Of a stretch of DNA of 64,000 nucleotides, positions 1 to 42,749 are shown in pieces. A program made the translations under genes and the position numbers. The notes under the pieces were generated by a model. It was given only the letters and a program-made list of their open reading frames with translations. It was not told where the DNA came from and ran no database searches. Every line of letters begins with the position of its first letter. Within the stretch, counting starts at the first letter, position 1. The DNA is from Candidatus Saccharimonadales bacterium (GTDB taxonomy: Bacteria > Patescibacteriota > Saccharimonadia > Saccharimonadales > UBA10212). Location: assembly GCA_049521895.1 (NCBI GenBank), contig JBEKOJ010000001.1, forward strand, positions 554,478 through 618,477, given 5' to 3'.

Positions 1-247
1 TATTAATCTCTACTAGCGAGGACTGGAACGTTGATAGCACCCACGTGAACTGCAGAAATCGAGCTCAATGGTACTTTGAATTTGCAAAGCACGGTCTAAT
101 AGCAACAGGGGAACAGGTTATATTCCCAGGTTTCAACTCGTTTGTGGTTCGACGAAGCAACAACCCGTTTGAGACATTTATCAATCTTACAAAATCTTAT
201 ATAAAGTTTCTAACCAATGGTCGGCTTGAAAGACCCGAGAGATTAAA

Positions 248-1123: not shown

Positions 1124-1144
1124 TAATGGTGAATATGCAAAGTT

Positions 1145-1885: not shown

Positions 1886-1896
1886 CTCTTTAGCCA

Positions 1897-3897: not shown

Positions 3898-3902
3898 ATT
3901 AC

Positions 3903-17001: not shown

Positions 17002-18066
17002 ATGGCTATTGACGTCATTCGCTTACAAAACTTTCGTTCTTATGAGGACGAAAGTTTTGAATTTGAATATGGCGTCAATATTGTGGTCGGGCCGAATGCT
17101 AGCGGCAAAACCAATCTGTTAGAAGCGATCTTGGTTCTGGCCCGCGGTGGTTCATACAAAGCCCACGACGCAGACCTAGTGCGGTTTAACAAGCCGTGGG
17201 CCCGCCTGGACGGTTATTTTGGCAAGCAAAGCCGCTTGGCAAAGCTGGTTTTGCGCAACGATAAGGCTGACAAAAGCTTTTTAATTAACGATAAGCCGTA
17301 TAGGCGCCTGAGCCTCGAGCGCACCGTGCCGATAGTATTTTTTGAGCCCAACAATTTACAGTTAATTACTCGCGGCCCCGACCAGCGGCGTGAATACATT
17401 GACGAGCTATTGGAGCGCAGCTTACCGGGCTTTAAGGCTTTAGCCGCTAACTACCGCCGCGCCCTGGCCCAACGTAATGCTCTACTGAAATACCATCCGA
17501 CACAAGGGGCTAAGCAGTTGTTCGCCTGGGATGTACGCTTAAGCGAACTCGGCGGTAAAATAGCCGCTGCCCGGCAACAGTTAGTTGATCAAATCAACAA
17601 AAACCTCAGCAAAAATTATAATCAGATAGCCCATAGCCGAATTAGCGCCCGCCTGAACTATAATAGCCACTTCCCGGCCGAAGCCTACGCCAGCAAAATG
17701 CTTTCCAAGCTATCCGCCAGCAGCCAATCAGATTTCGATAGAGGATTTACGGCTTACGGCCCGCACCGCGAGGACATCAGCTTTTCGCTCAACAAAAAAC
17801 TTGTCGGCCAGACCGCCTCGCGTGGCGAGACACGCAGCCTGATGCTGGCCTTAAAAATTTTTGAATTGGATTTGATAGAAAAAACCCGCGGCCAAAAGCC
17901 AATCCTGCTACTAGACGATGTATTTTCCGAACTGGACGGCGCCCGCCGCCGCTCGCTGGTCAGTTACCTAAAAAAATACCAAACTATTATAACTACTACG
18001 GATGCTGATGCGGTCATAGAGTATTTCGGCAACAAGCATAAAATGATCGCGTTATCCGGTCGTTAG
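17002..18066 (+). CDS. recF: DNA replication and repair protein RecF
   Basis: Walker A VVGPNASGKTNLLEAI and a C-terminal LLLDDVFSELD Walker B/signature; order dnaA-dnaN-recF. Confidence 0.85.
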   Translation: MAIDVIRLQNFRSYEDESFEFEYGVNIVVGPNASGKTNLLEAILVLARGGSYKAHDADLVRFNKPWARLDGYFGKQSRLAKLVLRNDKADKSFLINDKPYRRLSLERTVPIVFFEPNNLQLITRGPDQRREYIDELLERSLPGFKALAANYRRALAQRNALLKYHPTQGAKQLFAWDVRLSELGGKIAAARQQLVDQINKNLSKNYNQIAHSRISARLNYNSHFPAEAYASKMLSKLSASSQSDFDRGFTAYGPHREDISFSLNKKLVGQTASRGETRSLMLALKIFELDLIEKTRGQKPILLLDDVFSELDGARRRSLVSYLKKYQTIITTTDADAVIEYFGNKHKMIALSGR

Positions 18067-19379: not shown

Positions 19380-20726
19380 CTACTGCGGCGGCACTATGCC
19401 ATTAAATTCAAAGTGCATAAAGTCTTTCGGTTGCTGCCAGTTGCCACCCCAGGTGAACCCGTTATCGTTAAAAGCTGTAATGTATTCTTGGGGCATGTCG
19501 TGCGGGACGTCTGCCCCGCTTTCTGAAAACGGGTTTGTGTCCCAGTTGATATCACACGCCGCACCATATGTATGGTAACTACGAAGGCCGATATTAGATG
19601 TACCATTATCTGAGTCAAATCGATAACAGCCCATTTCTCGGATTTGATATGTAGAGCCACTTTGTTGAATCTCCAGTGCAACGGCGGAAAGGCAGGGAGC
19701 TACCAGCGGATTAACCTGGACGGAATTACCCAGGAAATTCACTGTTACTTGTTTTGCTTCCATAGATGCATGATCATCTTGAGTGCCGGGATCACCGAAA
19801 ATTGCTGTTAATTGGGCTTGAGAATATTCACCGCCTGAACCGCCTACGGATCCAGTAACTGGACTGTTAACACCGCAAGAACCAGAACCCGAAAAACAGG
19901 GACTACCATAACCGGAAGTTGAACCACCGGAAAAAGCTACAGGTAGTGGTACGGGCGAAGCCACGTCCCAATACTGGTTAATTAATGATTGCGCTTGCCC
20001 AACAAACGCTTTGTAATTTGAACCATCGGAGGTCGCAGAGCCTTGGACGGCCTGGACGGCTACCCAAGGTTGCCATGATTGCCAACCTGATTTGTCTTGT
20101 AAGCCTTTGCTTAATGCTGAAGGCGCATTTGACCCCGTTGGGCTTCCAAAAAATGCCTCGGCCGAATAGGCCGGGTCCATAAGTTGCCAAACCGCCGCTT
20201 GGTTGGAATCAGCTTCTGGCCCGGATGCGATGGTACTCCAATTCTGCGATGGTCTTTGCTGAAATACGCCTACAGAATCAAAATTACTGCCATCACCCTG
20301 CTTAGTCGGATTACTTTCTGATACGGGGACAGTTGTATTAGCAAGGATTGTTAGATGAGACTCGTCAAGTCCGGCCATCAATCCGACTAGTGCAGCATCC
20401 TTTCCAAGATTGTTCGTCTTGGCAATACCCATAATTGTCTTGGCAACTTCTACTTGTGATCGGCTAATTGCGGTACCCCCGTCACTGGCGCTACCGCTGC
20501 CTGTGGTAATGCCGGGGCTGGAGCCACAATAGCTACTACTGATACTATTCGGGTCATAATATGGGGTGCCGCCCAAAATGCTCTGGATGTCGGAGCTGGA
20601 TATGGCAGCTACTGATGGTTGAAGAAAAAGCACAAGGATCCCAGTCAAATAAAGTACTGACCTAAGATGACGGTGAATGGGAAATATCCGCGCTAAGCGT
20701 CTAACCTGATACATTTTGTACCCCAA
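19380..20726 (-). CDS. secreted peptidase M15 (VanY-like D-Ala-D-Ala carboxypeptidase fold) cell-wall hydrolase
   Basis: A signal peptide and a Gly/Ser-rich linker; the C-terminal SYHTYGAACDIN fits the S-x-H-x-x-G-x-A-x-D zinc motif of the M15 family and DFMHFEF supplies the second His. Confidence 0.65.
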   Translation of the reverse strand: MGYKMYQVRRLARIFPIHRHLRSVLYLTGILVLFLQPSVAAISSSDIQSILGGTPYYDPNSISSSYCGSSPGITTGSGSASDGGTAISRSQVEVAKTIMGIAKTNNLGKDAALVGLMAGLDESHLTILANTTVPVSESNPTKQGDGSNFDSVGVFQQRPSQNWSTIASGPEADSNQAAVWQLMDPAYSAEAFFGSPTGSNAPSALSKGLQDKSGWQSWQPWVAVQAVQGSATSDGSNYKAFVGQAQSLINQYWDVASPVPLPVAFSGGSTSGYGSPCFSGSGSCGVNSPVTGSVGGSGGEYSQAQLTAIFGDPGTQDDHASMEAKQVTVNFLGNSVQVNPLVAPCLSAVALEIQQSGSTYQIREMGCYRFDSDNGTSNIGLRSYHTYGAACDINWDTNPFSESGADVPHDMPQEYITAFNDNGFTWGGNWQQPKDFMHFEFNGIVPPQ

Positions 20727-23274: not shown

Positions 23275-25197
23275 CTAGACTCCAGTGGTCTGTTGGTCAG
23301 CCGGAGAAGATACGGGTTCAGCTGGCACTTGCATTGCTTGTAGATCTACCGACTGTTCAAGGCTTGGCTGAGGGGTTACGCTGGAATTAGTTGAAATCAA
23401 GTCGGTCTCGGTCGGGCTGGCGATGACTTGGATGTGTACATGATTCTGGCCAGCGAAAAATAGCCCCTGGCCAACCGGGAATTGGCTGAGGCGCTTTTTT
23501 TCCTCGTCAGTTAGCTTAAATACGTCAGCTAATACATCTACGGCGGTTGGCGATTGCTTGAGCAAAATCTGCACGCTGGCGTTGGCCACCACTGCCCGGC
23601 CCATGCGGCTAGCCATGAAATCTTCTACGTCCTGCGTAACCGTAGTTAGTCCAAGGTCGTATTTGCGCGCCCGCTTAGCCAGACTGAACAAAAAGTTGGC
23701 ACTGTCTTCATAGCGCATTAATTGCCAGGCTTCGTCAACTATCAAGATGCGGCGTTTACGTTCGGCTTTAGTCCGGTTCCAAATGTAGTTGAGAACTATA
23801 TACATGGCGACAGGCCTGAGCTCGTCTTCCAGGTCGCGGATATTAAAGACTACCATCGGGTTATTGACATTGACATTACTGGGCTGGCTGAAAATACCGG
23901 CGAAGGTACCGCTGGTATATTTGCGTAGACGCTGGGCCAGCTGTGGGCCGGTACCGCCCATATGCAGCAACGTGTCATAAAGGTCGCTCACAGTAGGCGG
24001 TGGCGAACCATGGGTCAGTGGGTCGTTGGTGATTCCGGCTTTGGCGTAGGTTTCAATCAGAGCGGCATCAAGATCGGCTTCCTCCGTAGGGCTAAGTGCC
24101 GGTACCGTTGTAGTTGCCCCTTGGGTTATCTGAGTCTGGGCACCGCCCATCATTAAGCGCAGTAAACCATGCAAAGTTATCAGATTAGACCGGAGCGCAT
24201 TATCGGCCTCTTCGGCATCAACCACCTGCGGCAAATCGAACGGGTTTATGCGGGTATCGCTATTTAAACTAAGCCGTATATATGTACCGCCCACGGCATC
24301 GCACATCTTTTGATACTCGTTTTCCGGATCGACAATAAAGATTTCGGTTCCGAACATCATGCTGCGTAGCGCCTCCAACTTAACAGTGAAGCTTTTGCCG
24401 GCGCCGGATTTGGCAAATACCACACTGTTGCCGTTCTCCAAGCTAAAGCGGTCAAAAATTACCAAGCCGGAGTTGTGCATGTTAATGCCGTAAAGAATGC
24501 CATTATCCTGGGTTAAGTCGGCGCTGGTAAACGGGAAACTGGTAGAAATGGCGCCAGTATTCATGTTGCGGTAAATCTGCAACTGATCAGTAAACTGCGG
24601 CAGGATACTATTTAAGCCTTGCTCCTGTTGGGTGCTGGCGGCTTTGGAATAGACCAGCTGCTGTCCCAGCAGCGACTCTACCTTGTGGCTGATAAACTCC
24701 AGCTCCTCCAACGAGTCGCCATAAATCGTAAAGTACAGCCCGAAGCGGAAAAAACGCTCCTCGCCTACCTGCAGCTTATCGCGCATTTCTTCGGCGTCCT
24801 GTACGGCGGCCTGCTTGCCTGGGTCGCGCACCCTGCCCTTTTCGGTGTCAATCTGAATGCCGGCCTCCAGCTGACTGACTTTTTTACGCAAGTTGTTTAA
24901 AACTACTTGGTTATCAACGGGGTGGATTATAATTGACAGGTCTATAACTTCGTCGAGGTTGACCATGCTTGATAGCCAGCCGGTATAAATCTGACGAGGA
25001 TAGCCATAAACGTAATATGCCCGGGCGTAACGGGTCCCCAGCTGAAAGTAATTATTGTTAAATACTAGTGAGCTGGGCGCGATAAAATCCCGTAGCGCCG
25101 TGATGCCTTTGGTAAAAGCGGCATTAACCTGCTGTTGTTCCATGGCCTGCAAGGCCGCTGGATCCGTCGTGGAGGACTTCCTCTTAAATAATGCCAT
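23275..25197 (-). CDS. VirB4/TrbE-family type IV secretion ATPase
   Basis: Walker A FAKSGAGKSF, Walker B RRILIVDEAWQLM (a DEAW-type box), a downstream LGLTTVTQDVEDF motif, and an N-terminal domain with the YPRQIYTGWLSSMVNLDEVIDLSIIIHP pattern seen in monoderm VirB4 homologues. Confidence 0.8.
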   Translation of the reverse strand: MALFKRKSSTTDPAALQAMEQQQVNAAFTKGITALRDFIAPSSLVFNNNYFQLGTRYARAYYVYGYPRQIYTGWLSSMVNLDEVIDLSIIIHPVDNQVVLNNLRKKVSQLEAGIQIDTEKGRVRDPGKQAAVQDAEEMRDKLQVGEERFFRFGLYFTIYGDSLEELEFISHKVESLLGQQLVYSKAASTQQEQGLNSILPQFTDQLQIYRNMNTGAISTSFPFTSADLTQDNGILYGINMHNSGLVIFDRFSLENGNSVVFAKSGAGKSFTVKLEALRSMMFGTEIFIVDPENEYQKMCDAVGGTYIRLSLNSDTRINPFDLPQVVDAEEADNALRSNLITLHGLLRLMMGGAQTQITQGATTTVPALSPTEEADLDAALIETYAKAGITNDPLTHGSPPPTVSDLYDTLLHMGGTGPQLAQRLRKYTSGTFAGIFSQPSNVNVNNPMVVFNIRDLEDELRPVAMYIVLNYIWNRTKAERKRRILIVDEAWQLMRYEDSANFLFSLAKRARKYDLGLTTVTQDVEDFMASRMGRAVVANASVQILLKQSPTAVDVLADVFKLTDEEKKRLSQFPVGQGLFFAGQNHVHIQVIASPTETDLISTNSSVTPQPSLEQSVDLQAMQVPAEPVSSPADQQTTGV

Positions 25198-26415: not shown

Positions 26416-27561
26416 TTAGTGCAGGGCGACGACAAATTCATTAGGGCTGACCTGCTGCACTTGATTATTGCGATTAGCCAAATGGGCAATTGAGGCCACG
26501 CTTAAATCATTACCGCTTTGGGCTAGCTCCAGTTTAGCAGCTTGCACCTCCGGTGTCACCTGTTGCATCTGTGTATTATTTGCCGGTTTTTGAGTGGTGG
26601 GGGCAGCCCTGTCTTTTGGAGCCGTAGGTTGGCGCGGGGATGGACCCGGTTCAGTGCCAAAATGCTTCGGGAGTTTGCTTTCAAGTTCAGCCTCCTCGTG
26701 GTGCAGGCGATCCAGTAACTGCCTTTCCTCATCCGTTAGATTTGATCCACTTTTATCGTTACCTGTGCTGGAGCCAGGAGCCACGATATTTTTACCCACA
26801 AAGGTAGTGGTGCCAGTTTGGCCATTGGCAGCCTGCTGATCTAGGAAAGTGGAGTCAACGCCCGGCTGTACGGTGGCTCCACCGGCCCGGGCAGCATCAA
26901 TTTTATCAGTGATGGCATTTTTCCGGTTGTCGTCTGCCTGTTGCATCAAAGTTGCAAACTTCTGGGCGGTGGGATTATTCTGCTCGTCTAAAATATCATC
27001 AGCAGCGCGGACATCAACCACCGGTATATCTTGGGTCAGACTGGAAGCTCCAATTAGGCGGTCGGAATCAGCTTGCTCACCCTCTAAATAACCCGGAGCT
27101 GCACCTATATCAACCGCCACGTTTTTAACAGCCCAACCGCGGCTATCCAGTGTACCCGCCAAAGCCTGCAGACGGCTGCGAACTTCTGTTTGCGATAGGT
27201 TTTTAGTGAGCTGTCTGGCGATCTTTTTTGGAGCGGTGATAGTTACCAGCTGGTTAATACCGCTTTGGTCCCAGATGCGGGTGTGTGGCTTAAAAAAGAA
27301 CTTTATGTGTGACAGCAACCACACTTCCGTGGGCTGCTCCCGGCCTAGTGGACTGGCCAAGACGCCAAATAAGGCCATCGGAGGCAAAAAGGCTAGCATT
27401 AATATCCAGCGGACGGAGCCTAGGCTATTGGCAACCAAAAAACGGAACTCCAAAAAGAGCGATACTCCGGCAATCGCCGCATAGACGAAGCTTTTTAGAG
27501 TCAGCGGCCCGACCAACTTATCTTCAGACTCAATGTCCTGAATTACTTTATATACAGCCAT
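26416..27561 (-). CDS. VirB3-like small-membrane-domain protein with a long C-terminal tail
   Basis: Two TM helices near the N-terminus (FVYAAIAGVSLFLEF ... ILMLAFLPPMALFGVLA), the usual VirB3/TcpE topology, immediately upstream of VirB4 genes; the tail is low complexity. Confidence 0.3.
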   Translation of the reverse strand: MAVYKVIQDIESEDKLVGPLTLKSFVYAAIAGVSLFLEFRFLVANSLGSVRWILMLAFLPPMALFGVLASPLGREQPTEVWLLSHIKFFFKPHTRIWDQSGINQLVTITAPKKIARQLTKNLSQTEVRSRLQALAGTLDSRGWAVKNVAVDIGAAPGYLEGEQADSDRLIGASSLTQDIPVVDVRAADDILDEQNNPTAQKFATLMQQADDNRKNAITDKIDAARAGGATVQPGVDSTFLDQQAANGQTGTTTFVGKNIVAPGSSTGNDKSGSNLTDEERQLLDRLHHEEAELESKLPKHFGTEPGPSPRQPTAPKDRAAPTTQKPANNTQMQQVTPEVQAAKLELAQSGNDLSVASIAHLANRNNQVQQVSPNEFVVALH

Positions 27562-27611: not shown

Positions 27612-30600
27612 CTAAGTGCTGGGTGGCGCCGGCTCAGAAGGCGGAGATTCTTCTTCATTCCTTGGTTGTGGTTCAACACTTCTAATCCCCGGGGGCATGA
27701 CAATACCTGAGCTGGTACCGACCACGGGTCGGATTGTGTCTCCGGGCTGGTATACAGGTTCGTGCACTATTCGTATTTCTCCGGTGGGCGTGGGGACTCC
27801 TATAGTGGGTTGAGTACCCGTTCGTCTAGCAGCCATTTCTCTGGCCAACCTTTGGGTAGCTACCGTGTTCTCGGCCAACTCATTGGAGAATCGGTTAAAC
27901 GCCACAGAACCTAAACTGGTAGGCTGGGCTTCGCCGGGGGCATAAGTTGGAGTTTCTTGAGGCGGCCCTGAGGGGGTAGTGGCAGCAGTCTCGGCCGCGG
28001 TTGCCGGAGCAGTAGTGGAAGTACTTGCCGGCCCTGTGGTTGCCGGAGCAGGGGCACCTGCCGGTGCTGCCGGCCCTGTGGGGGGCGGTACCAGTTCGGA
28101 CTTCGCTGGTTCATAATCGGCAGAGGCGTGCATCTTGGCGAACGCTCTTTCGTTAACTCCAAAGATATTATCTACGGTCAAATCATGAATCTCTCCGTCC
28201 GCACCTTTAAACTGTGTATAGCCCGAAGCTTTCAAAGCATTATCAATGGCTTGTTTGTGCGAGTCCGTACTCTTTAGGCTGGCCATAGAACGTAGGCCCG
28301 ATTCCGAGCCGGCCTGTTTGACGATAAAATCAGTAAACTCCTGCGCCGGTAAGGCACTTTTACCCTCGCCGTAGTACCCATTTCCCTGGTTCCAGCCGCT
28401 GATCTCTTTGGCGAATGTCAGCAAAGTATTTTTGCCAGCTTGAATAATGCCCAGGGTGTCTTCATCTAGGGCTTGCAGTTTTTGCATAAGGTAAGGCTTG
28501 TAGTGAAGTGAACCGTCGGGATTGGTAAACTCCTCTGCATACCTTTCTTCGCGAGGATTATCCCTTATTGCATCTTTACTAACATCAAATTCTCTCCCGT
28601 TAACATCCCTGCCCCTTCTAAAACCAGCCTTAGCCAAGATTTTCTGGTACCTCGCGCCGCCGCGCGGAACATTATTAGGAGTTAAGTCGGGGCGCATCCC
28701 GCCCAGCTCGCCCCAAAGCGACGGGTCCTTAAAAGCCTGGTCCACTAAAGGCCGCCAATCCCAAATAGGGACCATCTTATAATTCTTTGTCACGGGATCT
28801 TGTTGCGGGAAAACAAAGCTCTTGTCAGCCATCTCTAGAAGGGATCTAGCCTGGACGTTATAACGGCCAATAGATTTAAGCAGCTCAGAATCATTCTTCT
28901 CAGTCGCCATCATTGCCAAAATCTGGCTGGATTTCTTACCTGAACCTATGGCATTGGGCCGCATCCCTTGATCGAGCTCCTCGGCACTGAAAAGCCCACT
29001 CCGTCCGGTATCGTTGCCGTCTTTATCAAGCTCTTTCATACCGTATTTTTCTCTCGCTAGCCTGTCGTATTTCCGTACCATATCTGCCGGCATGCCCTGT
29101 TCCTGGGCCTTCCTGACGAAATTATTCCTTAGCGCGTCGTTTCTTTCGGCCATGGTTGACGACCATTGCTGCCCTCTAAAAAGCATCTTGGCCTTGGCAG
29201 CTTTTGTAGGGACAACGCGCCCGCCGGCGATACTCTGTAGTGCTGAAGATAATCTGCGGCTCCCCAACGTTTTCTTGAGCGGGTTGTAGTTATTGGCCCA
29301 CTTATCAGTGGTTTTCTCCCTGGCCCAGTTTTTTAGCGGCTGTTTGGTGGCGCTTTGGATACTCCTTTGCATATTCCCAAGGCTGTTCCCAGCTGCTGAC
29401 ATGGCTGTACCACCCCATTTATAAGCCTTGGGCAATATGGCGAGTGGCAAAAAGTAGCCGGCTATCACCAGCCAAAAATTGATAAACGAGCCATTATTAG
29501 TAGCTCCGCTCACATAAGCGAATATCCTCCCGGCGGCAATTATGGCTACTATCAATGGAAACATCATTAGTACTTTGGTGAAGTTATCCAGCCACATCTT
29601 CCACAACCGCTGCGGCCCCTGCCCCGGTAATATCCATATGGCCAGCGCGAGTGGTGAGAAGATCAGCAGCAAGATAATCAATATTTTGCGGAATACCAGT
29701 ACTGCCAAACCGATTAGCAATGTCAATGCCGCAGAAAATACTGCGAACAACAATGTCGGTAAGAAAGCTATCCCCAAAGTGAGTCCTATAAGCCCCCCCA
29801 GGTAGCCAACGAGTGTGGCTTGGCCTCCGGTAATATGAGCGTTGGTTAATAGCGACCCAAAGTCCAAATTACTTGCACCACCGAAAGGCGCATACATCAA
29901 ATCACCTAGTCCATTACCAATATCATTGACAATATCAACCACCCAGGCAAAAAGCGGCCAGGAAATTTGCATCAATATGGTCGCAATTACCATTTTTGGC
30001 AGCATTTTGCGCACAGTATAGGCATCAAAAGGTCCGCCCCCGATGGCTTGCGAAATAACCATTACCAGCATGACTATAACCAGGATAGCTGTGGCAATAT
30101 TTTTTATGAGCGACCATGCTGTTCTAACCTGGCCCTGTCCACTCCCCAGGTTTTGGGCGCCATTATTCTGGGCGTTGCAGTTTAATCCGCTCTGAATTAT
30201 GCAAAAAGGCAGCTGTTGCTCAAAGACGTGCATTAAGTTAGTAGCGGCGGAATCAGCAGCCTCCAAAGCAGGACAAGCGAACCAAGCCAGCGACCAGCCA
30301 TTGGATTTCAAATCGCAGGCATTCCCTGAGGTTGATATACCGCTCGAAGCCGATACTGGGCCACATGTAGCGCTGGTATCGTCTGGCGCACATTTTCCAC
30401 CGGTTGCAGTACTGCCTATCGCCACCTGATTAATTGGCGCTGCGAACACTTTCCCATCTTTGGCCACATCATATACAAGTGCGAGTACTTGGAGTGATCC
30501 GTCAGAATTTATTGAGGCTAAAAGTGCAAAGTCCGTGCCATTGGGCGCACCTGCTGCTGGTTGGTAGACATAGAACTTTACCTCCCGGGTATCGGGTGAG

Positions 30601-31034
30601 TTGCCGGCAGTATAAGATTGCCCTATGTAGGAGACATTATTCCAAGCGAGTGATTCTTGATCAGTCTGGCCAGCGACGAGTGGCTGCCCATCACTGTTCT
30701 CTAAGGCTATGCCGGTTGGTGGAGTCGGACCGTAGCTAGTTTGGTAAGTAGCGGTAGTAAAAGCCGTGGCGATGGTGCTGCTGCCATAGTTAAAGTTATT
30801 AATGCCATTGGTGGTAGGGCTAAGGTCGCAAGTATCAAGTACGCCGCCAGACGCACTAAAGGCAACCTTGTACGCACAAGCTTGCCAGAACTCTACCGTA
30901 GTTTGTGGAGGAGAGGTCACCGGAGGGATTGGGGGCACGTAAAGCGCAAAAGATGTTGCGTGAAATAGGAAAAAGAATACCGCTATCCCCACCGATAGGC
31001 CGAGCCCAGTTTTTATTTTCCTGTAAGTTTTCAT
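27612..31034 (-). CDS. VirB6/TrbL-like polytopic channel protein with large N- and C-terminal extensions
   Basis: 1140 aa; a signal peptide, a roughly 300 aa Cys-containing extracellular domain, then at least 6 TM helices with the TrbL/VirB6-like pattern (AILVIVMLVMVISQAIGGGPF ... LLIFSPLALAIWILPG), then a roughly 550 aa cytoplasmic domain ending in a Pro/Ala/Thr-rich tail. Confidence 0.55.
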   Translation of the reverse strand: MKTYRKIKTGLGLSVGIAVFFFLFHATSFALYVPPIPPVTSPPQTTVEFWQACAYKVAFSASGGVLDTCDLSPTTNGINNFNYGSSTIATAFTTATYQTSYGPTPPTGIALENSDGQPLVAGQTDQESLAWNNVSYIGQSYTAGNSPDTREVKFYVYQPAAGAPNGTDFALLASINSDGSLQVLALVYDVAKDGKVFAAPINQVAIGSTATGGKCAPDDTSATCGPVSASSGISTSGNACDLKSNGWSLAWFACPALEAADSAATNLMHVFEQQLPFCIIQSGLNCNAQNNGAQNLGSGQGQVRTAWSLIKNIATAILVIVMLVMVISQAIGGGPFDAYTVRKMLPKMVIATILMQISWPLFAWVVDIVNDIGNGLGDLMYAPFGGASNLDFGSLLTNAHITGGQATLVGYLGGLIGLTLGIAFLPTLLFAVFSAALTLLIGLAVLVFRKILIILLLIFSPLALAIWILPGQGPQRLWKMWLDNFTKVLMMFPLIVAIIAAGRIFAYVSGATNNGSFINFWLVIAGYFLPLAILPKAYKWGGTAMSAAGNSLGNMQRSIQSATKQPLKNWAREKTTDKWANNYNPLKKTLGSRRLSSALQSIAGGRVVPTKAAKAKMLFRGQQWSSTMAERNDALRNNFVRKAQEQGMPADMVRKYDRLAREKYGMKELDKDGNDTGRSGLFSAEELDQGMRPNAIGSGKKSSQILAMMATEKNDSELLKSIGRYNVQARSLLEMADKSFVFPQQDPVTKNYKMVPIWDWRPLVDQAFKDPSLWGELGGMRPDLTPNNVPRGGARYQKILAKAGFRRGRDVNGREFDVSKDAIRDNPREERYAEEFTNPDGSLHYKPYLMQKLQALDEDTLGIIQAGKNTLLTFAKEISGWNQGNGYYGEGKSALPAQEFTDFIVKQAGSESGLRSMASLKSTDSHKQAIDNALKASGYTQFKGADGEIHDLTVDNIFGVNERAFAKMHASADYEPAKSELVPPPTGPAAPAGAPAPATTGPASTSTTAPATAAETAATTPSGPPQETPTYAPGEAQPTSLGSVAFNRFSNELAENTVATQRLAREMAARRTGTQPTIGVPTPTGEIRIVHEPVYQPGDTIRPVVGTSSGIVMPPGIRSVEPQPRNEEESPPSEPAPPST

Positions 31035-31162
31035 TTTGGTAGTACTGTCAATAGAAATATAGCATAAGAGTCTTAAGTCAACAATCTGTGAGACCAGATT
31101 ACGATTTCATCCAAGCAGCTTATCCTTATTTATGATATATTGCTACTTAGTAAAAGCGTTTT
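31035..31162. promoter_or_regulatory. divergent promoter region between the T4SS core operon (minus) and the pilin-like gene array (plus)
   Basis: A 128-bp AT-rich intergenic region between divergently oriented operons. Confidence 0.3.
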
Positions 31163-31681
31163 ATGAAAACGAGAAACAAAAACTGGTTAGGTACATACAG
31201 AATGCTGATATCAAGCGTAGCCATAATGTTGCTTATGGTAGCTTTCTTACCAAATATGGTTTCGGCTGCCACCGACCCCGCTTGTCAAAAATTTCTCGAT
31301 TCAAAAGGCAACGCTACACCCGACTCAACACAGTGTGAAAATACAACACCAATAGCTTGTCTTGAATTTGATCGATCTACCGTACAGGCTGAAAGTAAGT
31401 TTGACGCTTGCTTATCTCAGAATGTCCTAGTGCCGAAGAATAGTCGAATAGTCCAAGACCTTAACGATATTGTTAGTGTTCTCAGTGGCCTGGTGGGCAT
31501 AGCGGTAGTCGGCACCATCATATTAGGTGGTATCCAATACTCTGCGGCTGGTGATAAACCCGAGGCCTTGCAAAAAGCTAAACAAAGGATTACCAACGGC
31601 TTGCTCGCCCTAGGAGTGTTCTTACTGATCTTTGCATTTTTGCAATGGATAATACCCGGAGGTGCATTTAATTCGCCATGA
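31163..31681 (+). CDS. VirB2/TrbC-like pilin candidate, paralog 1
   Basis: Signal peptide (LISSVAIMLLMVAFLPNMVSAA), a 4-Cys variable head, and a C-terminal two-helix hairpin IAVVGTIILGGIQYSAAGDKPEALQKAKQRITNGLLALGVFLLIFAFLQWI. Confidence 0.45.
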   Translation: MKTRNKNWLGTYRMLISSVAIMLLMVAFLPNMVSAATDPACQKFLDSKGNATPDSTQCENTTPIACLEFDRSTVQAESKFDACLSQNVLVPKNSRIVQDLNDIVSVLSGLVGIAVVGTIILGGIQYSAAGDKPEALQKAKQRITNGLLALGVFLLIFAFLQWIIPGGAFNSP

Positions 31682-32085
31682 TGAATATATTTTTTGCTAA
31701 ATTAAGCTGGTTGATAACTCAATTTGCTGCGGTGCCTAGTGCTTGTACAGCTCATCAATTCTTCTTTTTCCCTACATGGTGGGAGTATTTGCCGGATAAG
31801 CGGTTTACAACTGATGCCGTTGGGCAATGTCTGATCAACTTCCGATTTCCTGGGGATATTCTACCGGTCGGTCTAGCAGTTCTGGATATATTGCTACGCC
31901 TGGCCGGTTTTGTAGCTGTGGTATCAATCATTGTTGCCGGCTTCCAGCACTTATTTACTGGCGGTAATCCCGAAAAAGCGGCGTCGGCCCGCCGCCGCCT
32001 GTGGAACTCACTCATAGGTCTTGGGATAGTCATAACGGCTACAGCGGCAGTAACCTTTATCGGTAATCAAATAGGGCAAACATGA
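31678..32085 (+). CDS. VirB2/TrbC-like pilin candidate, paralog 2
   Basis: Hydrophobic N-terminus, 2 Cys, and a hairpin VAVVSIIVAGFQHLFTGGNPEKAASARRRLWNSLIGLGIVITATAAVTFI; overlaps the previous gene by 4 bp. Confidence 0.45.
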   Translation: MMNIFFAKLSWLITQFAAVPSACTAHQFFFFPTWWEYLPDKRFTTDAVGQCLINFRFPGDILPVGLAVLDILLRLAGFVAVVSIIVAGFQHLFTGGNPEKAASARRRLWNSLIGLGIVITATAAVTFIGNQIGQT

Positions 32086-32369
32086 GTATTTTTAGCGTAT
32101 TGCAGCTTATCAATCCTCAGCAGGATAACCTGCCCCGGACCCAAGCTAACAACGATACTTTACAAGCTATACTCACTGATGTGTTCGTGCTGCTTGGCGC
32201 AATCGCCATTTTTATGATTGTGGTCGCCGGCCTACTGTATATAACCGCCCGAGGTAATCCAGAGAAAGTTACTACAGCCCGTAACCGCATACTTTATTCT
32301 GTGATGGGTTTGGTGCTGGCCGCCTCGGCCGTGGCTATAGTCAACGTAGTACTAGGGAGGGCAGGATGA
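32082..32369 (+). CDS. VirB2/TrbC-like two-helix hairpin protein, paralog 3 (no signal peptide, no Cys)
   Basis: VFVLLGAIAIFMIVVAGLLYITARGNPEKVTTARNRILYSVMGLVLAASAVAIV is the same hairpin motif without the variable head. Confidence 0.4.
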   Translation: MSIFSVLQLINPQQDNLPRTQANNDTLQAILTDVFVLLGAIAIFMIVVAGLLYITARGNPEKVTTARNRILYSVMGLVLAASAVAIVNVVLGRAG

Positions 32370-32800
32370 AATACAAGCTCAAAGTACTAGTGCTAGGACT
32401 AATATCTTTTGTGGCCTTTCTGGTGTTACCAGTCAATACCTATGCAGCATTCAACCCCTTAGGTTCGGCTTGTCCAAAGGGCAGCAAAGCTGCTAACGGT
32501 ACAGTCTGCAAGGATAACAGCTCCCAGATAAATAGCGGGCAAAACCCGGCAGTCCATACCATACATGTAGCTACCAATTTAATAGCGCTGACTGCGGGCA
32601 TAGTCGCTGTGGTTATCATAATAATCAGTGGCTTTATGTTTGCTACTGCCGGGGGAAGTATTGGTGGCCAACGGGCTGGCGATAATCCCACCAAGGCTAG
32701 AAATGCTCGGGCAGCACTTATTGGTTCACTCGTCGGTCTGGCTATTGTCGCGCTGGCCTGGTCCATAGTAACCTTTATAACAGACCGCGTGGTTCACTAA
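32366..32800 (+). CDS. VirB2/TrbC-like pilin candidate, paralog 4
   Basis: Signal peptide with an AxA-type cleavage site (NTYAAF), a 2-Cys head, and a hairpin LTAGIVAVVIIIISGFMFATAGG ... AALIGSLVGLAIVALAWSIVTFI. Confidence 0.45.
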   Translation: MKYKLKVLVLGLISFVAFLVLPVNTYAAFNPLGSACPKGSKAANGTVCKDNSSQINSGQNPAVHTIHVATNLIALTAGIVAVVIIIISGFMFATAGGSIGGQRAGDNPTKARNARAALIGSLVGLAIVALAWSIVTFITDRVVH

Positions 32801-32821
32801 AATGAAACTTAGGTAAATAAT

Positions 32822-33331
32822 ATGCTTTCAATTAAAAAAATAACCGGCGTATTGGGATTAAGTCTTGTATTTTGCGGCTTCACTCTTTTTGCGGGCCCAG
32901 CACTAAAAGCATTAGATCCATGCGATACTAACGGTGATGGTCAAGTAAGCACCCAAGAAGCCATCCAGTGTGGTAGTAATGGTGCGGCAGGCACAACACA
33001 GACCAGCGACCAAGCTTCGACGAATCTGGATAACACAATACTCTCCATAGTCAATTATTTATCAATAGCGGTAGGTATAGTAGCTGTTGTTATGATCATA
33101 ATGGGCGGCTTCCGTTACATAACTAGCGGCGGCAAACAAGAAAGTATTGTCGGTGCCAAAAACACTATCACCTATGCTATTGTCGGGCTGGTTATTGTGG
33201 CCTTGGCCCAAGTGATAGCTAGATTCACACTGAATACGGTTACGACAAGCAGCACTCAATCTACGTCGAGCAGCACGCAATCTACGACCCAGAGCGGCAA
33301 TAATCCTTGTGTGCCCGGCAAGCCTTGCTGA
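32822..33331 (+). CDS. VirB2/TrbC-like pilin candidate, paralog 5
   Basis: Signal peptide, a 2-Cys head, a hairpin LSIAVGIVAVVMIIMGGFRYITSGGKQESIVGAKNTITYAIVGLVIVALAQVIARF, and an extra Ser/Thr-rich C-terminal tail ending NPCVPGKPC. Confidence 0.5.
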   Translation: MLSIKKITGVLGLSLVFCGFTLFAGPALKALDPCDTNGDGQVSTQEAIQCGSNGAAGTTQTSDQASTNLDNTILSIVNYLSIAVGIVAVVMIIMGGFRYITSGGKQESIVGAKNTITYAIVGLVIVALAQVIARFTLNTVTTSSTQSTSSSTQSTTQSGNNPCVPGKPC

Positions 33332-33411
33332 TAACCGCTTGTCATAAGCGGGTTGACTGTGCTATAAGTGCGTATATACTCATAATAAGGTAGATAAAAA
33401 GGAAATTTAAA

Positions 33412-33837
33412 ATGCTCAATAAAATCAAAACTTTAATACTGTCTCTTAGTTTACTCATCGTACCAGCCGTGCCTTTGGTAGCTGGAGGGGTGGTCAACGC
33501 TGATACTAGCCAAACCACGATTCAAAGTGGTGAATGCGGTGGCGCCGACACCTTATCTCTAAGTTCAACCAACGGAAATAACTGCAATATACAGGGAAAT
33601 TCAAGTTTAGATCATGTGATCACCACTGCGGTCAATGTACTGTCTATTATTGTCGGTGTTGTGGCTGTCATTATGATCATCATTGGCGGCTTTCGTTATA
33701 TTGCCAGTGGCGGCAAACAAGAGAGTGTCAGCGGCGCTAAGAATACTATACTGTACGCCATCATTGGGCTGATTATAGTTGCACTGGCGCAGGTCATAGT
33801 TCGCTTTGTGCTGAACAAAACTACCGCTAATTCCTAG
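33412..33837 (+). CDS. VirB2/TrbC-like pilin candidate, paralog 6
   Basis: Signal peptide, a 2-Cys head, and a hairpin LSIIVGVVAVIMIIIGGFRYIASGGKQESVSGAKNTILYAIIGLIIVALAQVIVRF that is nearly identical to paralogs 5 and 7. Confidence 0.5.
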   Translation: MLNKIKTLILSLSLLIVPAVPLVAGGVVNADTSQTTIQSGECGGADTLSLSSTNGNNCNIQGNSSLDHVITTAVNVLSIIVGVVAVIMIIIGGFRYIASGGKQESVSGAKNTILYAIIGLIIVALAQVIVRFVLNKTTANS

Positions 33838-33861
33838 TAGGCAGCAGGCTAATAATCTATA

Positions 33862-34293
33862 ATGTGGGGCGTGACAAGAGCTAAAATTATATCTTGGCTG
33901 GCCGCTTTTGTGGCTTGCATGACCCTAACTCTAGGATTGTCGGCAATACCAGTAGCTTTTGCCCAGACAGTACAACAGCAGATTAATAATGGCCTCTGTG
34001 CCGGCTCAAACTTACAATTTGATAACTCCACCGCTAGCTGTAGCAGCAGTAACGCTAACACCAGCATAAATAACATAGTTCACACCATAGTTAACCTGCT
34101 CTCGGCAATTGTCGGCATCGTGGCCGTCATCATGATAATTGTCGGCGGTCTGCGCTATATTACCAGTGGTGGTAACGACACGAGTGTCACCAGCGCCAAA
34201 AATACTATCCTCTACGCTATAGTCGGTCTTATTGTGGTTGCCCTTGCACAGATCATAGTGCGCTTTACGCTCAGCAAAGTTACCAACAGCTAG
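33862..34293 (+). CDS. VirB2/TrbC-like pilin candidate, paralog 7
   Basis: Signal peptide, a 2-Cys head, and a hairpin LSAIVGIVAVIMIIVGGLRYITSGGNDTSVTSAKNTILYAIVGLIVVALAQIIVRF. Confidence 0.5.
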   Translation: MWGVTRAKIISWLAAFVACMTLTLGLSAIPVAFAQTVQQQINNGLCAGSNLQFDNSTASCSSSNANTSINNIVHTIVNLLSAIVGIVAVIMIIVGGLRYITSGGNDTSVTSAKNTILYAIVGLIVVALAQIIVRFTLSKVTNS

Positions 34294-39639: not shown

Positions 39640-40165
39640 TGTACCAGAAGTTTGGCTATGCTACCCCTTGCATTGTTATTGACCTTCTGCAAAAAGTTCC
39701 ACTTTCTGAGTGGCGGCCCTCGTGGTACGCGGTACGAGGTCCGGCGAGTGGTGGAAGCTCGGTGCGTTGCTTAAGTAGACAACTTAGGCAGTGCTCGCTG
39801 ATGTACCGATCGCCTACCCGGTCGCGTGGACCTGGGTGTACCGCTAGATACCTCGGTTGAGCCAAATCAAGCGCAAGTTGTGCGCCGACTCTTACGCACT
39901 CTTGTGTCATTCATCAAAGTGCCTACGAAGGTCGGGCCGGGTGTCCGCTCGCCCGTCCGGTCGCGTCGAGTCGGCTGTATCGCCAATAAGCATGAATAGG
40001 CGAGTTTTGTGATTTAAGGGCGGGGACTGTCTGAGCTCTTCGCTCTTACGAAGAACTTCGACCCGGCGTACGAGGAACCGAGTAGAGCCGCTCAGCTGCT
40101 GCTCGGCGGGTCAGAGCGTTGAACTTCTCGACGGCAGCGCGATTGAGCTCTCTGTATTTGTCGCC
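39640..40165. other. GC-rich non-coding block of atypical composition (possible element remnant or structured RNA)
   Basis: About 520 bp that is visibly richer in G/C than its surroundings; only short overlapping ORFs on both strands. Confidence 0.3.
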
Positions 40166-40168
40166 GCC

Positions 40169-40564
40169 GTGCTTAGCTGCCAGAAAAGAGATTATGTGCT
40201 TAGGGCCAAATGGCTTGAAAATCACGTCGGCAGAGTTGAGACCAACAGATATAATAGACTCATGAGAATCTTCGGAATACGAGTGGTACGCTTGCTAAAA
40301 GAGTCGCCAGCAGGTGTGCGCGGCGATTTAAGCATAAGACATTTTCATAATGGCAAGATTGCAACCAAAGCAAAAGTTGGCACCGAGCTTCACAGAGATA
40401 CTAATACGTGGCAACACAGAGAACGATATATTGACATGCTTCATCAATATGATAAACATTCGTACAATGAAAAAATTATCAATCCAACAACTGGTGATTA
40501 CATGGAAAAGGATGAGGTCTACGCAGACCACAGAAAATCCAAAGGCCGAAAGCGCACTCAGTAA
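40169..40564 (+). CDS. hypothetical protein (possible degenerate HNH-like C-terminus)
   Basis: The C-terminus EVYADHRKSKGRKRTQ weakly resembles the start of an HNH motif (EVDHIiPkSkGG) but is cut by a stop; otherwise no motifs. Confidence 0.2.
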   Translation: MLSCQKRDYVLRAKWLENHVGRVETNRYNRLMRIFGIRVVRLLKESPAGVRGDLSIRHFHNGKIATKAKVGTELHRDTNTWQHRERYIDMLHQYDKHSYNEKIINPTTGDYMEKDEVYADHRKSKGRKRTQ

Positions 40565-40818
40565 CTAATTGGATACTGAACTACACACATAATTCGTCCG
40601 GCTTCCACTTGAGAAGCTGTAGTTGCTGGAGGTAGAACAATAGGTGCTTCACCAGAGCTGTATAGCGAACCTACCGTTTGTAAACACTCCTTTTGTGCAA
40701 GCTTGATGTGGTTAGTCCGTTGTATCAAGTAGAACTTAGCGCCCGTAAATACTAAAGCAACAGTTAATATCGTTACCCAAAGCATAACCACAATTGTTCG
40801 TTTCATCCCCTCGCCCAT
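40558..40818 (-). CDS. hypothetical small membrane protein
   Basis: 86 aa with one N-terminal TM helix (TIVVMLWVTILTVALVFTGAKFYLI). Confidence 0.2.
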   Translation of the reverse strand: MGEGMKRTIVVMLWVTILTVALVFTGAKFYLIQRTNHIKLAQKECLQTVGSLYSSGEAPIVLPPATTASQVEAGRIMCVVQYPISY

Positions 40819-40966
40819 AACACCTCCTTAATCTGCAAATATTATAACGCATTCAATCTACTTGCTATGAAGAGATAGTCGCCAATTAGCTTCGGGCTTC
40901 TGCCACAGCGCGTACGGGAATCCGGTCCTCCATTTCTTCGTTTGTTCTGGTAAAATAGGTCCCACT

Positions 40967-42730
40967 ATGGAGAGGAATGTAGAAGGAAACACCGGTAAGA
41001 GAGCCATCATCTACCTGCGAGTTTCAACTGCTCGTCAGGCATCTTCAGGTGGCGAAGCTGAGGGTTACTCCATCCCGGCACAACGTGAGGCCTGCCGACG
41101 TAAGGCCACCGAGCTCGGCGCTGACGTCGTAGATGAATACGTTGATGCCGGAGCTAGTGCTCGCTCAGCAGACCGGCCAGCTCTGCAAGCACTCCTAGAC
41201 CGGCTGAATGAGCAGAAAGACGTCGACTATGTCATCGTCCATAAGGTCGACCGTCTAGCCCGGGACCGAGCTGATGATGTCGCTATTGGCCTGACTATCC
41301 ATAAGGCCGGAGCGGTGCTCGTTTCAGCCTCGGAGCAGATTGACGACACGCCGGCTGGCACGTTGCTACACGGCATCATGGCGGCGATTGCCGAGTTCTA
41401 CTCCAAGAACCTGAGCCATGAGACTAAGAAAGGTCTGCATGAGAAGGCCAAGCGTGGCGGTACGCCTGGCTATGCACCACTCGGCTATCTGAACAGCACG
41501 ACCAGGGTTGATGGCAAAGAAGTCAAGGCCGTGGACCTTGACCCAGAGCGAGCACCTCATCTGCAGTGGGCCTTTGAGGCTTACGCCTTGGGCGAATGGT
41601 CAATCACCGACATCGTCGACGAGCTAGCCCGGAGAGGCATGAAGACTCGACCGACTGCAACTAGGCAGGCCATACCGCTGGTTAGAAGCCAAGTCCACCG
41701 CATCCTGAAAAGTCCGTACTACACCGGACGGCTGCCGTACCGAGGCGTTGAGTACGACGGCAAGCACCCGGCTCTGATTGACGATGAGACCTGGCAGCGA
41801 GTACAGGATGTGCTCGACGGTCGACGAATCTCGGGTGACCGCTCTTGGAAGCACGAGCACTACTTGAAGGGCACTGTTTTCTGTGCCAGATGCGACTCAC
41901 GTCTAGCTATGACCTACGCCAAAGGCCGTGGCGGTACCTACCAATACTTCTACTGCCTCGGCAGAGCTAAGAAGCGCACTGGTTGCGACCTGCCGTATCT
42001 GTTGGCTGAAAAAGTCGAGGAGCAAGTCATTGACCACTGGCGCTCGCGGAAACTGGCATCTGACCTGGTCGAACTGGTCCGCGATGTGGCTCGTGAAGAA
42101 CTGGCGGAGCAAAAATCCAAGGACAAGCAGCTGCTGGTGACCCAACGCCGGCGCTTACAGCGCCTTGAAGCTAAGCGCCAGAAGCTGATTGATGCTTATC
42201 TAGCCGAAGCTATCCCGATCGCTGACCTGAAGAAGCGGCAAGAAGCCATCGCTGTTGAGCAGCGAGATGCTGAACGCCTCATTGAGCTAGCCAACGTCAA
42301 CCACGCCTTGATCGAAGAGCGACTGGAGATTGCACTCAATCTGCTCGAGCACTGTGACCGGCTGTACATAGGAGCTAATGAGGCAGGCAGACGAGCAGCC
42401 AATCAGGCTTTCTTCGCCGCGCTGTACATGGACACTGCAGGCGTTGTTAGGGCGGAGCTCAACCCGCCGTTTGCTGAGCTCGTCGATAGAAGCATTGGTC
42501 TGGTCGACGATGACGACGACGGGCCGGAGGACGACCCAGACGGACCCGAACCCCTGGACTGGCCTAGGGAGGCCACAGGGGCGACCAGGGCGACCGTCCT
42601 GGCCTCGGCGAAGACAAACCCCCTGGCCGAGGGGTCAGGGGGTTCGGACGTCAAACTTTTGGCGGAAGGGGTGGGATTCGAACCCACGGTGCACTTGCGT
42701 GCACACCTGTTTTCGAGACAAGCCAGTTAA
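40967..42730 (+). CDS. large serine recombinase (resolvase/invertase-type catalytic domain plus recombinase domain and zinc ribbon)
   Basis: AIIYLRVSTARQ holds the catalytic Ser; there is a central recombinase domain, a Cys cluster CARCDSRL...YFYCLGRAKKRTGC, a coiled-coil QRRRLQRLEAKRQKLIDAY and an acidic tail; composition is high-GC relative to neighbours; the ORF has no stop before it runs antisense through tRNA-Ser(CGA) at 42660-42749, so the true C-terminus is uncertain. Confidence 0.8.
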   Translation: MERNVEGNTGKRAIIYLRVSTARQASSGGEAEGYSIPAQREACRRKATELGADVVDEYVDAGASARSADRPALQALLDRLNEQKDVDYVIVHKVDRLARDRADDVAIGLTIHKAGAVLVSASEQIDDTPAGTLLHGIMAAIAEFYSKNLSHETKKGLHEKAKRGGTPGYAPLGYLNSTTRVDGKEVKAVDLDPERAPHLQWAFEAYALGEWSITDIVDELARRGMKTRPTATRQAIPLVRSQVHRILKSPYYTGRLPYRGVEYDGKHPALIDDETWQRVQDVLDGRRISGDRSWKHEHYLKGTVFCARCDSRLAMTYAKGRGGTYQYFYCLGRAKKRTGCDLPYLLAEKVEEQVIDHWRSRKLASDLVELVRDVAREELAEQKSKDKQLLVTQRRRLQRLEAKRQKLIDAYLAEAIPIADLKKRQEAIAVEQRDAERLIELANVNHALIEERLEIALNLLEHCDRLYIGANEAGRRAANQAFFAALYMDTAGVVRAELNPPFAELVDRSIGLVDDDDDGPEDDPDGPEPLDWPREATGATRATVLASAKTNPLAEGSGGSDVKLLAEGVGFEPTVHLRAHLFSRQAS

Positions 42731-42749
42731 ACCACTCCTGCACCCTTCC
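42660..42749 (-). tRNA. tRNA-Ser (anticodon CGA), type II
   Basis: Reverse complement GGAAGGGTGCAGGAGTGGTTTAACTGGCTTGTCTCGAAAACAGGTGTGCACGCAAGTGCACCGTGGGTTCGAATCCCACCCCTTCCGCCA; anticodon loop CTCGAAA; a TATAAT box 12 nt upstream. Confidence 0.8.

Follow-up and report, generated by a model that had tools for sequence, protein, structure and literature searches.

In this study, we analyzed a 64,000-nucleotide stretch of genomic DNA (the window) from a Candidatus Saccharimonadales bacterium (GenBank assembly GCA_049521895.1, contig JBEKOJ010000001.1), and found that seven co-oriented open reading frames (ORFs) on the + strand, named W1 to W7 and arranged head to tail between positions 31163 and 34293, encode VirB2/TrbC-like pilin-family proteins of a type IV secretion system (T4SS). 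This identification follows from the match of all seven proteins to the Pfam family PF18895 (T4SS_pilin) and from the linkage of the genes to VirB3, VirB4, VirB6 and cell-wall hydrolase genes. We consider it highly probable that these genes form the VirB2-like pilin array of the chromosomal, conjugation-derived (monoderm, MPF-FATA-like) T4SS that Saccharibacteria (Saccharimonadia, Patescibacteria/CPR), minute bacteria living attached to other bacteria, have near the replication origin, and that the members of the array are distinct, non-redundant subunits. The seven-gene set is old and has stayed fixed, rather than being a variable expansion of recent date. The members of the array (sizes in amino acids, aa) are as follows.

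31163 to 31681, + strand: W1, pilin 1, 172 aa; leader, head with four cysteines, hairpin ending LQWIIPGGAF; PF18895 38.5 bits; the strain-variable member
31678 to 32085, + strand: W2, pilin 2, 135 aa; weak, atypical N-terminus, Cys23 and Cys51, the motif FFxxPxWWxYL, hairpin; PF18895 35.0 bits
32082 to 32369, + strand: W3, pilin 3, 95 aa; bare hairpin without a signal peptide; PF18895 49.1 bits
32366 to 32800, + strand: W4, pilin 4, 144 aa; leader, head with invariant Cys36 and Cys48, hairpin; PF18895 29.2 bits
32822 to 33331, + strand: W5, pilin 5, 169 aa; leader, head with two cysteines, hairpin, S/T-rich C-terminal tail; PF18895 48.5 bits
33412 to 33837, + strand: W6, pilin 6, 141 aa; leader, head with two cysteines, hairpin; PF18895 53.8 bits
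33862 to 34293, + strand: W7, pilin 7, 143 aa; the most conserved member; PF18895 54.8 bits, PF04956 28.6 bits

The junctions W1/W2, W2/W3 and W3/W4 are 4-bp overlaps of the ATGA type, and the gaps after W4, W5 and W6 measure 21, 80 and 24 bp, respectively. An original prediction, made from the letters of the DNA alone, had described seven consecutive small genes of 95 to 172 aa with some 4-bp overlaps, and they were found at exactly the coordinates it gave. Public gene calls for identical DNA give W1 a length of 159, 151 or 172 aa (start at 31163 versus 31202); the 172-aa start at 31163 was favoured because the basic N-terminus MKTRNKNW or MNTRNKNW is conserved in a homologue (P0122). A promoter and terminator scan of the array gave counts that were not above those of shuffled sequence, and no convincing promoter was called.

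All seven proteins passed the PF18895 gathering cut-off (26.6 bits, whole-protein score) with scores of 29.2 to 54.8 bits and E-values of 1e-6 to 1e-14, well beyond chance expectation and in agreement with the precomputed annotation of identical proteins. The TrbC/VirB2 model PF04956 (gathering cut-off 27.9 bits) was passed by W7, while W6 (25.2 bits), W3 (24.2), W5 (21.0) and W2 (10.7) fell below the cut-off and W1 and W4 gave no match. The NCBIfam model NF045849, which describes an Mbov_0395 pilin-like conjugal transfer protein (cut-off 40 bits), was passed by W3 alone at 41.2 bits, the others scoring 21.7 to 30.3 bits, and W3 also passed DUF6112 (PF19607) at 26.9 bits. The nearest homologue of W7, 99% identical, bears the NCBI name "pilin [Candidatus Saccharimonadales bacterium]". 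The VirB2/TrbC-like identity proposed in the original prediction was upheld by PF18895 and by the T4SS linkage; its suggested match to PF04956 was obtained for W7 but not for the other members.

In the AlphaFold2 model of W7, a leader helix is followed by a head of low confidence and then by a helix-turn-helix (residues 63-101 and 106-142); the hairpin modelled alone had a predicted local distance difference test (pLDDT) score of 80. Fold searches were non-specific and gave no specific match to solved pilus subunits. When the W7 family alignment was run as a profile against PDB sequences, only spurious membrane proteins such as MacB and ATP synthase b were returned.

Multiple alignment of W1 to W7 showed that the seven proteins share a C-terminal module of about 70 residues, in which two hydrophobic helices are joined by a short polar loop. 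Within the loop, Lys or Arg residues mostly flank a Gly-rich turn, as in R/Y-I-T-S-G-G ... A-K-N, and W4 carries a 9-residue insert there. The pairwise identity of the hairpins was 65-71% among W5 to W7 and 17-39% in all other pairs, and that of the heads was 7-28% among the paralogues. The predicted common hairpin was recovered in every member by alignment and by PF18895. However, the consensus that had been quoted for it (VGIVAV.MII.GGFRYI.SGG...AKNTILYAI.GL..VALAQ.IVRF) describes W5 to W7 and does not hold for W1 to W4, whose hairpins are only 17-39% identical to the others.

Hydropathy analysis found three hydrophobic segments (a leader and two more) in W1, W4, W5, W6 and W7, and the hairpin helices only in W2 and W3. 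The predicted leaders of the five proteins have a basic N-terminus, a hydrophobic segment and an AxA-type site, cleavage being judged from AxA motifs alone. The N-terminus of W2 has weak hydrophobicity and almost no charge, varies widely among orthologues and contains no 19-residue window that reaches a Kyte-Doolittle value of 1.6. W3 has no N-terminal hydrophobic segment, and neither do its positional orthologues. Six Sec-type leaders had been expected; five are clear (W1 and W4 to W7), but that of W2 is weak and atypical. The description of 32082-32369 as a bare hairpin without a signal peptide was borne out, in the orthologues as well.

After the predicted cleavage sites, the heads contain two cysteines each and that of W1 contains four, in line with the two to four that had been anticipated, and the W5 tail contributes two more. 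This tail is S/T-rich and, again as predicted, ends in NPCVPGKPC, with a short C-x5-C spacing. In many W5 orthologues the tail is variable and carries a loop of the form C-x(9-17)-C, as in DCVNGKTSTGQKC and KCVSGKWDSGPNKDKKCP (position-5 genes of loci L001, L003, L009, L013, L016 and L026). We regard the W5 tail as a putative second appendage, exposed and Cys-bridged, that is particular to this paralogue.

The motif F-F-x-x-P-x-W-W-x-Y-L is strongly conserved in W2 orthologues, where it lies between two invariant cysteines and just before the hairpin. The W2 orthologues also lack a convincing signal peptide, though the head would need export. A lipoprotein assignment was considered for W2, as Cys23 directly follows "PSA", and was rejected; the orthologues have the contexts G-D-A-C, A-A-A-C and Q-T-C and no lipobox. 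Since a second cysteine, Cys51, is also invariant, a disulfide is suggested rather than a lipoprotein role for Cys23.

We then ran a hidden Markov model of the hairpin on 35 species-level genome loci, almost all of which bear the label Saccharibacteria or Saccharimonadales. Most of the 35 loci contained a tandem array of seven (six to nine where the contig spans the whole array), and the size pattern of about 170, 135, 95, 140, 150-170, 145 and 145 aa recurred from locus to locus. When the genes were compared back to the window by BLAST, positions 1 to 4 matched W1 to W4 unambiguously (for example, 100 bits versus 44 bits for the next paralogue), and positions 5 to 7 mapped to the W5-W7 subgroup. 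The order of the seven genes and their gene-by-gene orthology are kept across about 16-25 species-level Saccharimonadales genomes. Such shared order and positional orthology indicate that the paralogues are older than the divergence of these genomes and that each has been retained.

Within the orthologue groups, heads evolve faster between species than hairpins do. The mean pairwise identities of head and hairpin were 0.12 and 0.55 for W1, 0.34 and 0.57 for W2, 0.24 and 0.42 for W4, 0.22 and 0.53 for W5, 0.20 and 0.64 for W6, and 0.45 and 0.77 for W7. Cysteine pairs are kept in the orthologues of W1 (C66/C83), W2 (C23/C51), W4 (C36/C48) and W6 (C42/C58). The heads of W1 orthologues range from about 30 to about 200 residues, and W3 orthologues are always about 90-105 aa long. 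W7 and W1 lie at opposite ends of conservation: W7 had 3773 homologues, the best 120 of which were 66-99% identical over 72-100% of the query (mostly more than 90%), whereas W1 had only 72, most of them matching the hairpin alone.

Saccharimonadales-type arrays, at most 70% identical to W7, were also seen in three loci binned as "Candidatus Babeliales", "Korobacteraceae" and "Bdellovibrionales" (L003, L028 and L034). Mis-binning is likely, as the L028 array gave scores identical to those of L029, a Saccharimonadales metagenome-assembled genome from the same SPRUCE study. Arrays of this kind have been reported in TM6/Dependentiae too, according to the cited part of McLean 2018 (10.1101/258137).

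The T4SS genes and the region that separates them from the array are listed below.

19380 to 20726, - strand: secreted cell-wall hydrolase, a functional analogue of VirB1; PF13539 Peptidase_M15_4 58.9 bits
20701 to 23268, - strand: 855-aa membrane-anchored protein in the same gene string, presumed from its position to belong to the system
23275 to 25197, - strand: VirB4-type ATPase, 640 aa; PF19044 P-loop_TraG 97 bits, AAA_10 42 bits
25339 to 26241, - strand: TrsD/TraC-like protein, 300 aa, resembling the VirB4 N-terminal region; sub-threshold NCBIfam TrsD and CD1110, precomputed PF26593 TraC-like
26416 to 27561, - strand: PrgI/VirB3-like protein, 381 aa; PF12666 PrgI 29.3 bits (cut-off 27)
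27612 to 31034, - strand: VirB6/TrbL-like polytopic membrane protein, extended, 1140 aa; precomputed PF19590 TrbL_3 on the identical protein
31035 to 31162, no strand: divergent intergenic region from the VirB6-like gene to the pilin array; presumed promoter site from the gene layout

The VirB4, PrgI, TrsD-like and TrbL_3 genes all lie within 8 kb of the array on the opposite strand and are transcribed divergently from it. Two further small proteins of the - strand gene string have no family assignment. Our own Pfam hmmscan of the 1140-aa VirB6-like protein gave nothing at E<=1, and the 855-aa protein had no match in Pfam, NCBIfam or PDB sequences. No relaxase or coupling-protein (T4CP) Pfam family was found among the scanned window ORFs of at least 120 aa. 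The array lies about 13 kb from dnaA (13871-15250), dnaN (15507-16598) and a recF-like gene (17002-18066), beyond which are yidC and jag-like genes. The rest of the window is housekeeping in character, with a glycosyltransferase cluster, GroEL, TsaD, a Mur ligase, ValRS and an ABC/FtsX transporter. A mobile-element origin of the T4SS at this site was rejected because of these surroundings (dnaA, dnaN, yidC, GroEL, ValRS and TsaD) and the lack of a relaxase.

The closest proteins and nearly all of the related loci are labelled Saccharimonadales or Saccharibacteria by their source names. Window positions 23412-43837 are 100% identical to contigs of several JGI and ENA metagenome assemblies, and 81 index blocks of public metagenome assemblies contain the exact W6 protein.

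To compare strains, we used a variant represented by two contigs, L039 and L041, which differ from the window type by four scattered single-base differences in about 10 kb outside the following two tracts.

29529 to 30185, no strand: strain-variable tract 1, inside the VirB6-like gene; 0.66 kb with 72 differences between the window and L039, against about 0-1 per 3 kb in the flanking DNA
31054 to 32354, no strand: strain-variable tract 2; 1.3 kb with 313 differences, covering the intergenic region, all of W1 and W2 and nearly all of W3

The approximately 800 bp that separate the two tracts are identical between the strains, and W4 to W7 show zero differences. Of the 20 amino-acid changes counted for tract 1, 19 fall within 36 residues (397-432) of the VirB6-like protein. 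In tract 2, the leader and head of W1 are unalignable between the strains (172 versus 132 aa), while the hairpin is about 90% conserved at the protein level. In the alignable coding parts, dS was 0.89 for the W1 hairpin, 0.35 for W2 and 0.29 for W3, with dN/dS values of 0.06, 0.08 and 0.016, respectively. The high dS together with the low dN/dS in an otherwise clonal background indicates that divergent DNA was imported by homologous recombination. Point-mutational hypervariability or positive selection in tract 2 was considered and rejected on these values (dS 0.3-0.9, dN/dS at most 0.08 in the alignable parts). The original prediction had proposed to test the heads for an elevated dN/dS among strains; in the alignable parts the values were low, and the change in the W1 head is a recombinational replacement. 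The variant W1 protein is present on 13 contigs. The variant strain carries both the tract 1 and the tract 2 alleles.

Arrays of this type are already known. McLean 2018/2020 described an array of small signal-peptide proteins in TM7x (10.1101/258137). Wang 2023 reported that the pilin array of S. epibionticum is essential and, in the passage cited, that the organism has no recognisable relaxase or coupling protein; transposon sequencing (Tn-seq) in the same work puts the pilin genes with the T4SS (PMC10633639). Quinonero-Coronel 2025 searched 3,035 Patescibacteria genomes with PF18895 and PF04956 and obtained 441 arrays of 2-11 pilin genes, which are abundant in Saccharimonadia, have a mean within-array identity of about 25%, and accompany T4SS genes near dnaA (PMC12102498). 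An analogy with Bartonella and Anaplasma, in terms of host adaptation and antigenic variation, had also been drawn in that paper. A review describes six VirB2-like pilins, conserved in structure and divergent in sequence, and likewise calls the array essential in S. epibionticum (PMC12857230). The novelty implied by the original prediction is therefore lost, since the cited parts of these papers already contain the array, its affinity to VirB2 and the idea about host range. The locus is no discovery but one more case of a known system, to which it adds nothing categorical, given that a Pfam model, the NCBI name "pilin" and a survey of hundreds of arrays already exist. The fixed seven-gene orthology and the W1/VirB6 replacement between strains appear to go beyond the published passages.

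Under the definition of an array in the cited part of PMC12102498 (at least two tandem PF18895/PF04956 genes near virB4, with MPF-FATA-type partners), the locus is a Patescibacterial VirB2 array: tandem PF18895/PF04956 genes lie near virB4 with PrgI, TrsD and VirB6 partners. It is also chromosomal and dnaA-proximal, has no relaxase or coupling-protein family, and belongs to a member of the Saccharimonadia.

In the model that we favour, the subunits would be inserted into the membrane so that the head and the C-terminus face outward and the loop faces the cell interior. The members with a leader would depend on Sec and signal peptidase, and the leaderless W3 may be inserted in a YidC-type manner. 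The VirB4/VirB6 machine would then extract the subunits and build a pilus-like or conduit structure across the envelope toward the host bacterium. In this structure W1 to W7 would take distinct, non-redundant roles, which is the most likely arrangement because the seven are kept as separate positional orthologues and W1 to W4 are translationally coupled. W7, with its relatives W5 and W6, would be the conserved bulk subunit and the candidate major subunit, and W1 the variable, exposed, host-facing subunit. Variation would enter by homologous recombination that replaces the W1 head together with W2/W3 alleles and a VirB6 segment.

Several points weigh against this model. Formation of a pilus is a prediction; the review cited above calls the pilus a "possibility", and according to its cited passage a filament is still to be demonstrated in every Patescibacterial T4SS (PMC12857230). 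The role of the T4SS is described as "completely unknown" in the cited part of PMC11665869, even though the system is essential for the epibiotic growth of S. epibionticum. PF04956 membership is marginal, the export signal of W2 is doubtful, and the proposed subunit roles are putative, being read from conservation patterns. The 855-, 189- and 235-aa neighbours were assigned to no family, and one of them may be a divergent coupling protein.

The main rival explanation is that the seven proteins are membrane-resident T4SS parts, such as a channel, a stalk or a lipid-facing collar around VirB6, that form no extended pilus, like the short pilin-like proteins of integrative and conjugative elements (ICEs) of the wall-less Mycoplasma. 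We judge this unlikely, though several points favour it. W3 passes the Mbov_0395 model derived from Mycoplasma ICEs, similar genes sit by a VirB4 of the CD1110 family in a megaplasmid of the Bacillota, a group not known for conjugative pili, and pili are generally absent from monoderm T4SSs in the accounts of PMC10633639 and PMC12102498 that we cite. The absence of a specific pilus match in the fold searches agrees with it too, and the difference in a transmembrane/loop segment of VirB6 in the very strain that has variant W1-W3 fits direct membrane contact. On the other hand, Cys-paired, fast-evolving and size-variable heads and the S/T-rich tail of W5 fit surface exposure better, seven distinct subunits are many for a collar, and both PF18895 and PF04956 model pilin families. 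That the genes encode unrelated small membrane proteins (holin-like, bacteriocin-immunity or transporter accessory proteins) merely resembling a hydrophobic hairpin is barely credible. Two-helix hairpins do draw weak matches to many membrane families, and the structure searches were non-specific; however, all seven proteins exceed a curated family threshold, the linkage to VirB3, VirB4 and VirB6 is present in the window and in the strain variants, the array recurs in related genomes, and the published Tn-seq data group the pilin genes with the T4SS (PMC10633639).

The original prediction had read the locus as a diversifying array whose hypervariable heads serve host range or antigenic variation. 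In its full form, this would make W1 to W7 interchangeable versions of one pilin, expanded and diversified so that exposed heads could be varied to change antigens or switch host range, a role proposed for Anaplasma and Bartonella VirB2, and it is the idea put forward in the cited part of PMC12102498. Heads do diverge far more than hairpins, both among paralogues (7-28% versus 17-71%) and among orthologues, and the W1 head has been swapped between near-identical strains. But the order and size of the positional orthologues are maintained from one species-level genome to the next, which makes the divergence old and fixed, and the three 4-bp overlaps of W1 to W4 suggest co-expression, through coupling, and not alternation. 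W4 to W7 are invariant between the strains, and the imported W1-W3 tract is under purifying selection in its alignable coding parts (dN/dS 0.016-0.08). The best 120 of the 3773 matches to W7 are 66-99% identical with the head included, mostly near whole length. The array is reported to be essential in S. epibionticum (PMC10633639), and no silent cassettes, invertible elements or recombinase adjoin the array here. We therefore regard interchangeable antigenic variants as unlikely, and this explanation as rather less probable than that of membrane-resident parts; the notion of a variable head stands for W1 only. Seven stable, individually conserved orthologues argue for a multi-subunit structure over a variation cassette.

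A narrower form of the favoured multi-subunit model is that one hetero-oligomeric appendage has a fixed division of labour, in which W1 and VirB6 residues 397-432 form a matched host-specificity module. We put this forward as a speculation with a small chance of being right, and it would need a functional link between the two changes, both of which sit in the same variant strain. In this reading W1, the first subunit, would be the element that recognises the host, and its Cys-rich head would be traded among co-existing strains by homologous recombination. If it is true, W1 and VirB6 397-432 could decide which host bacterium a Saccharibacterium exploits. The natural strain pair offers the W1 head (with the W2/W3 alleles) and the VirB6 segment as concrete candidate host-specificity determinants.

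Among known systems, the locus is most readily compared with those of S. epibionticum ML1 (SEML1_0006-0019) and N. lyticus TM7x, which also have tandem VirB2-like genes by VirB6, VirB3/PrgI, VirB4 and a hydrolase, are chromosomal and near dnaA with no recognisable relaxase or coupling protein, and belong to the same class of organisms. By published description, those arrays have six (ML1) and four to six (TM7x) genes versus seven here, and the organism studied here is an environmental member of the Saccharimonadales found in JGI and ENA metagenome assemblies. The diderm VirB2/TrbC/TraA pilins (PF04956; T-pilus and F-pilus) share the leader, the two helices, the short basic loop and the VirB4/VirB6 linkage. 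In contrast to them, the proteins described here have long Cys-containing heads, form a set of seven paralogues in a monoderm and reach the PF04956 cut-off in W7 only; no VirB5, cyclisation or acetylation genes were identified here.

Anaplasma phagocytophilum and Bartonella, as cited in the passages of PMC12102498, similarly have tandem divergent VirB2 copies in a host-dependent organism. Unlike those copies, W1 to W7 are ancient positional orthologues with distinct architectures, four of them translationally coupled, and variation is introduced by recombination at a single member.

The Mbov_0395-family proteins of Mycoplasma ICEs and Bacillota elements are likewise short hairpins encoded beside VirB4 in monoderm T4SS loci. 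In those loci the gene occurs once or twice and its product has no elaborate head; of the seven proteins described here, all but W3 score below the NF045849 cut-off. On a megaplasmid of Pontibacillus sp. ALD_SL1 (NZ_CP062975.1, 351801-361354; L045), we observed two adjacent small genes, one annotated as Mbov_0395-family pilin-like and the other encoding a protein 32% identical to W3. Downstream of the pair are genes for a 779-aa protein, small ORFs, a VirB4-like CD1110-family ATPase and a peptidoglycan endopeptidase. This locus indicates that pilin-like hairpin genes of monoderm T4SS loci are not confined to Patescibacteria. A tblastn search of plasmids with W3 gave one weak match, so that at this sensitivity the family is not common on sequenced plasmids.

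Additional observations were made elsewhere in the window. The window and contigs L036-L038 and L040 share a 2.9-kb segment (39717-42659) that is absent from L039, in which homology resumes exactly at the start of a tRNA-Ser(cga) gene (42660-42749). The segment contains small ORFs and most of a gene for a large serine recombinase (40967-42730; Resolvase, Recombinase and Zn_ribbon_recom domains), the 3' end of which enters the tRNA gene. It looks like a small, strain-polymorphic integrative element at a tRNA gene.

At 10865-11353 on the - strand, a 162-aa protein with PaaX_M/Cas2-like domains is encoded (PF20803 50 bits, PF09827 24 bits); in its surroundings, neither a CRISPR array nor a further cas gene was noticed. 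Positions 1-6000 have a G+C content of about 0.41, compared with 0.46-0.52 elsewhere, and hold a cluster of glycosyltransferase (GT11, GT2 and GT4) and methyltransferase genes, with a Wzy_C ligase and a GDP-mannose dehydratase extending up to about 10.8 kb. This region is possibly a horizontally acquired surface-polysaccharide locus.

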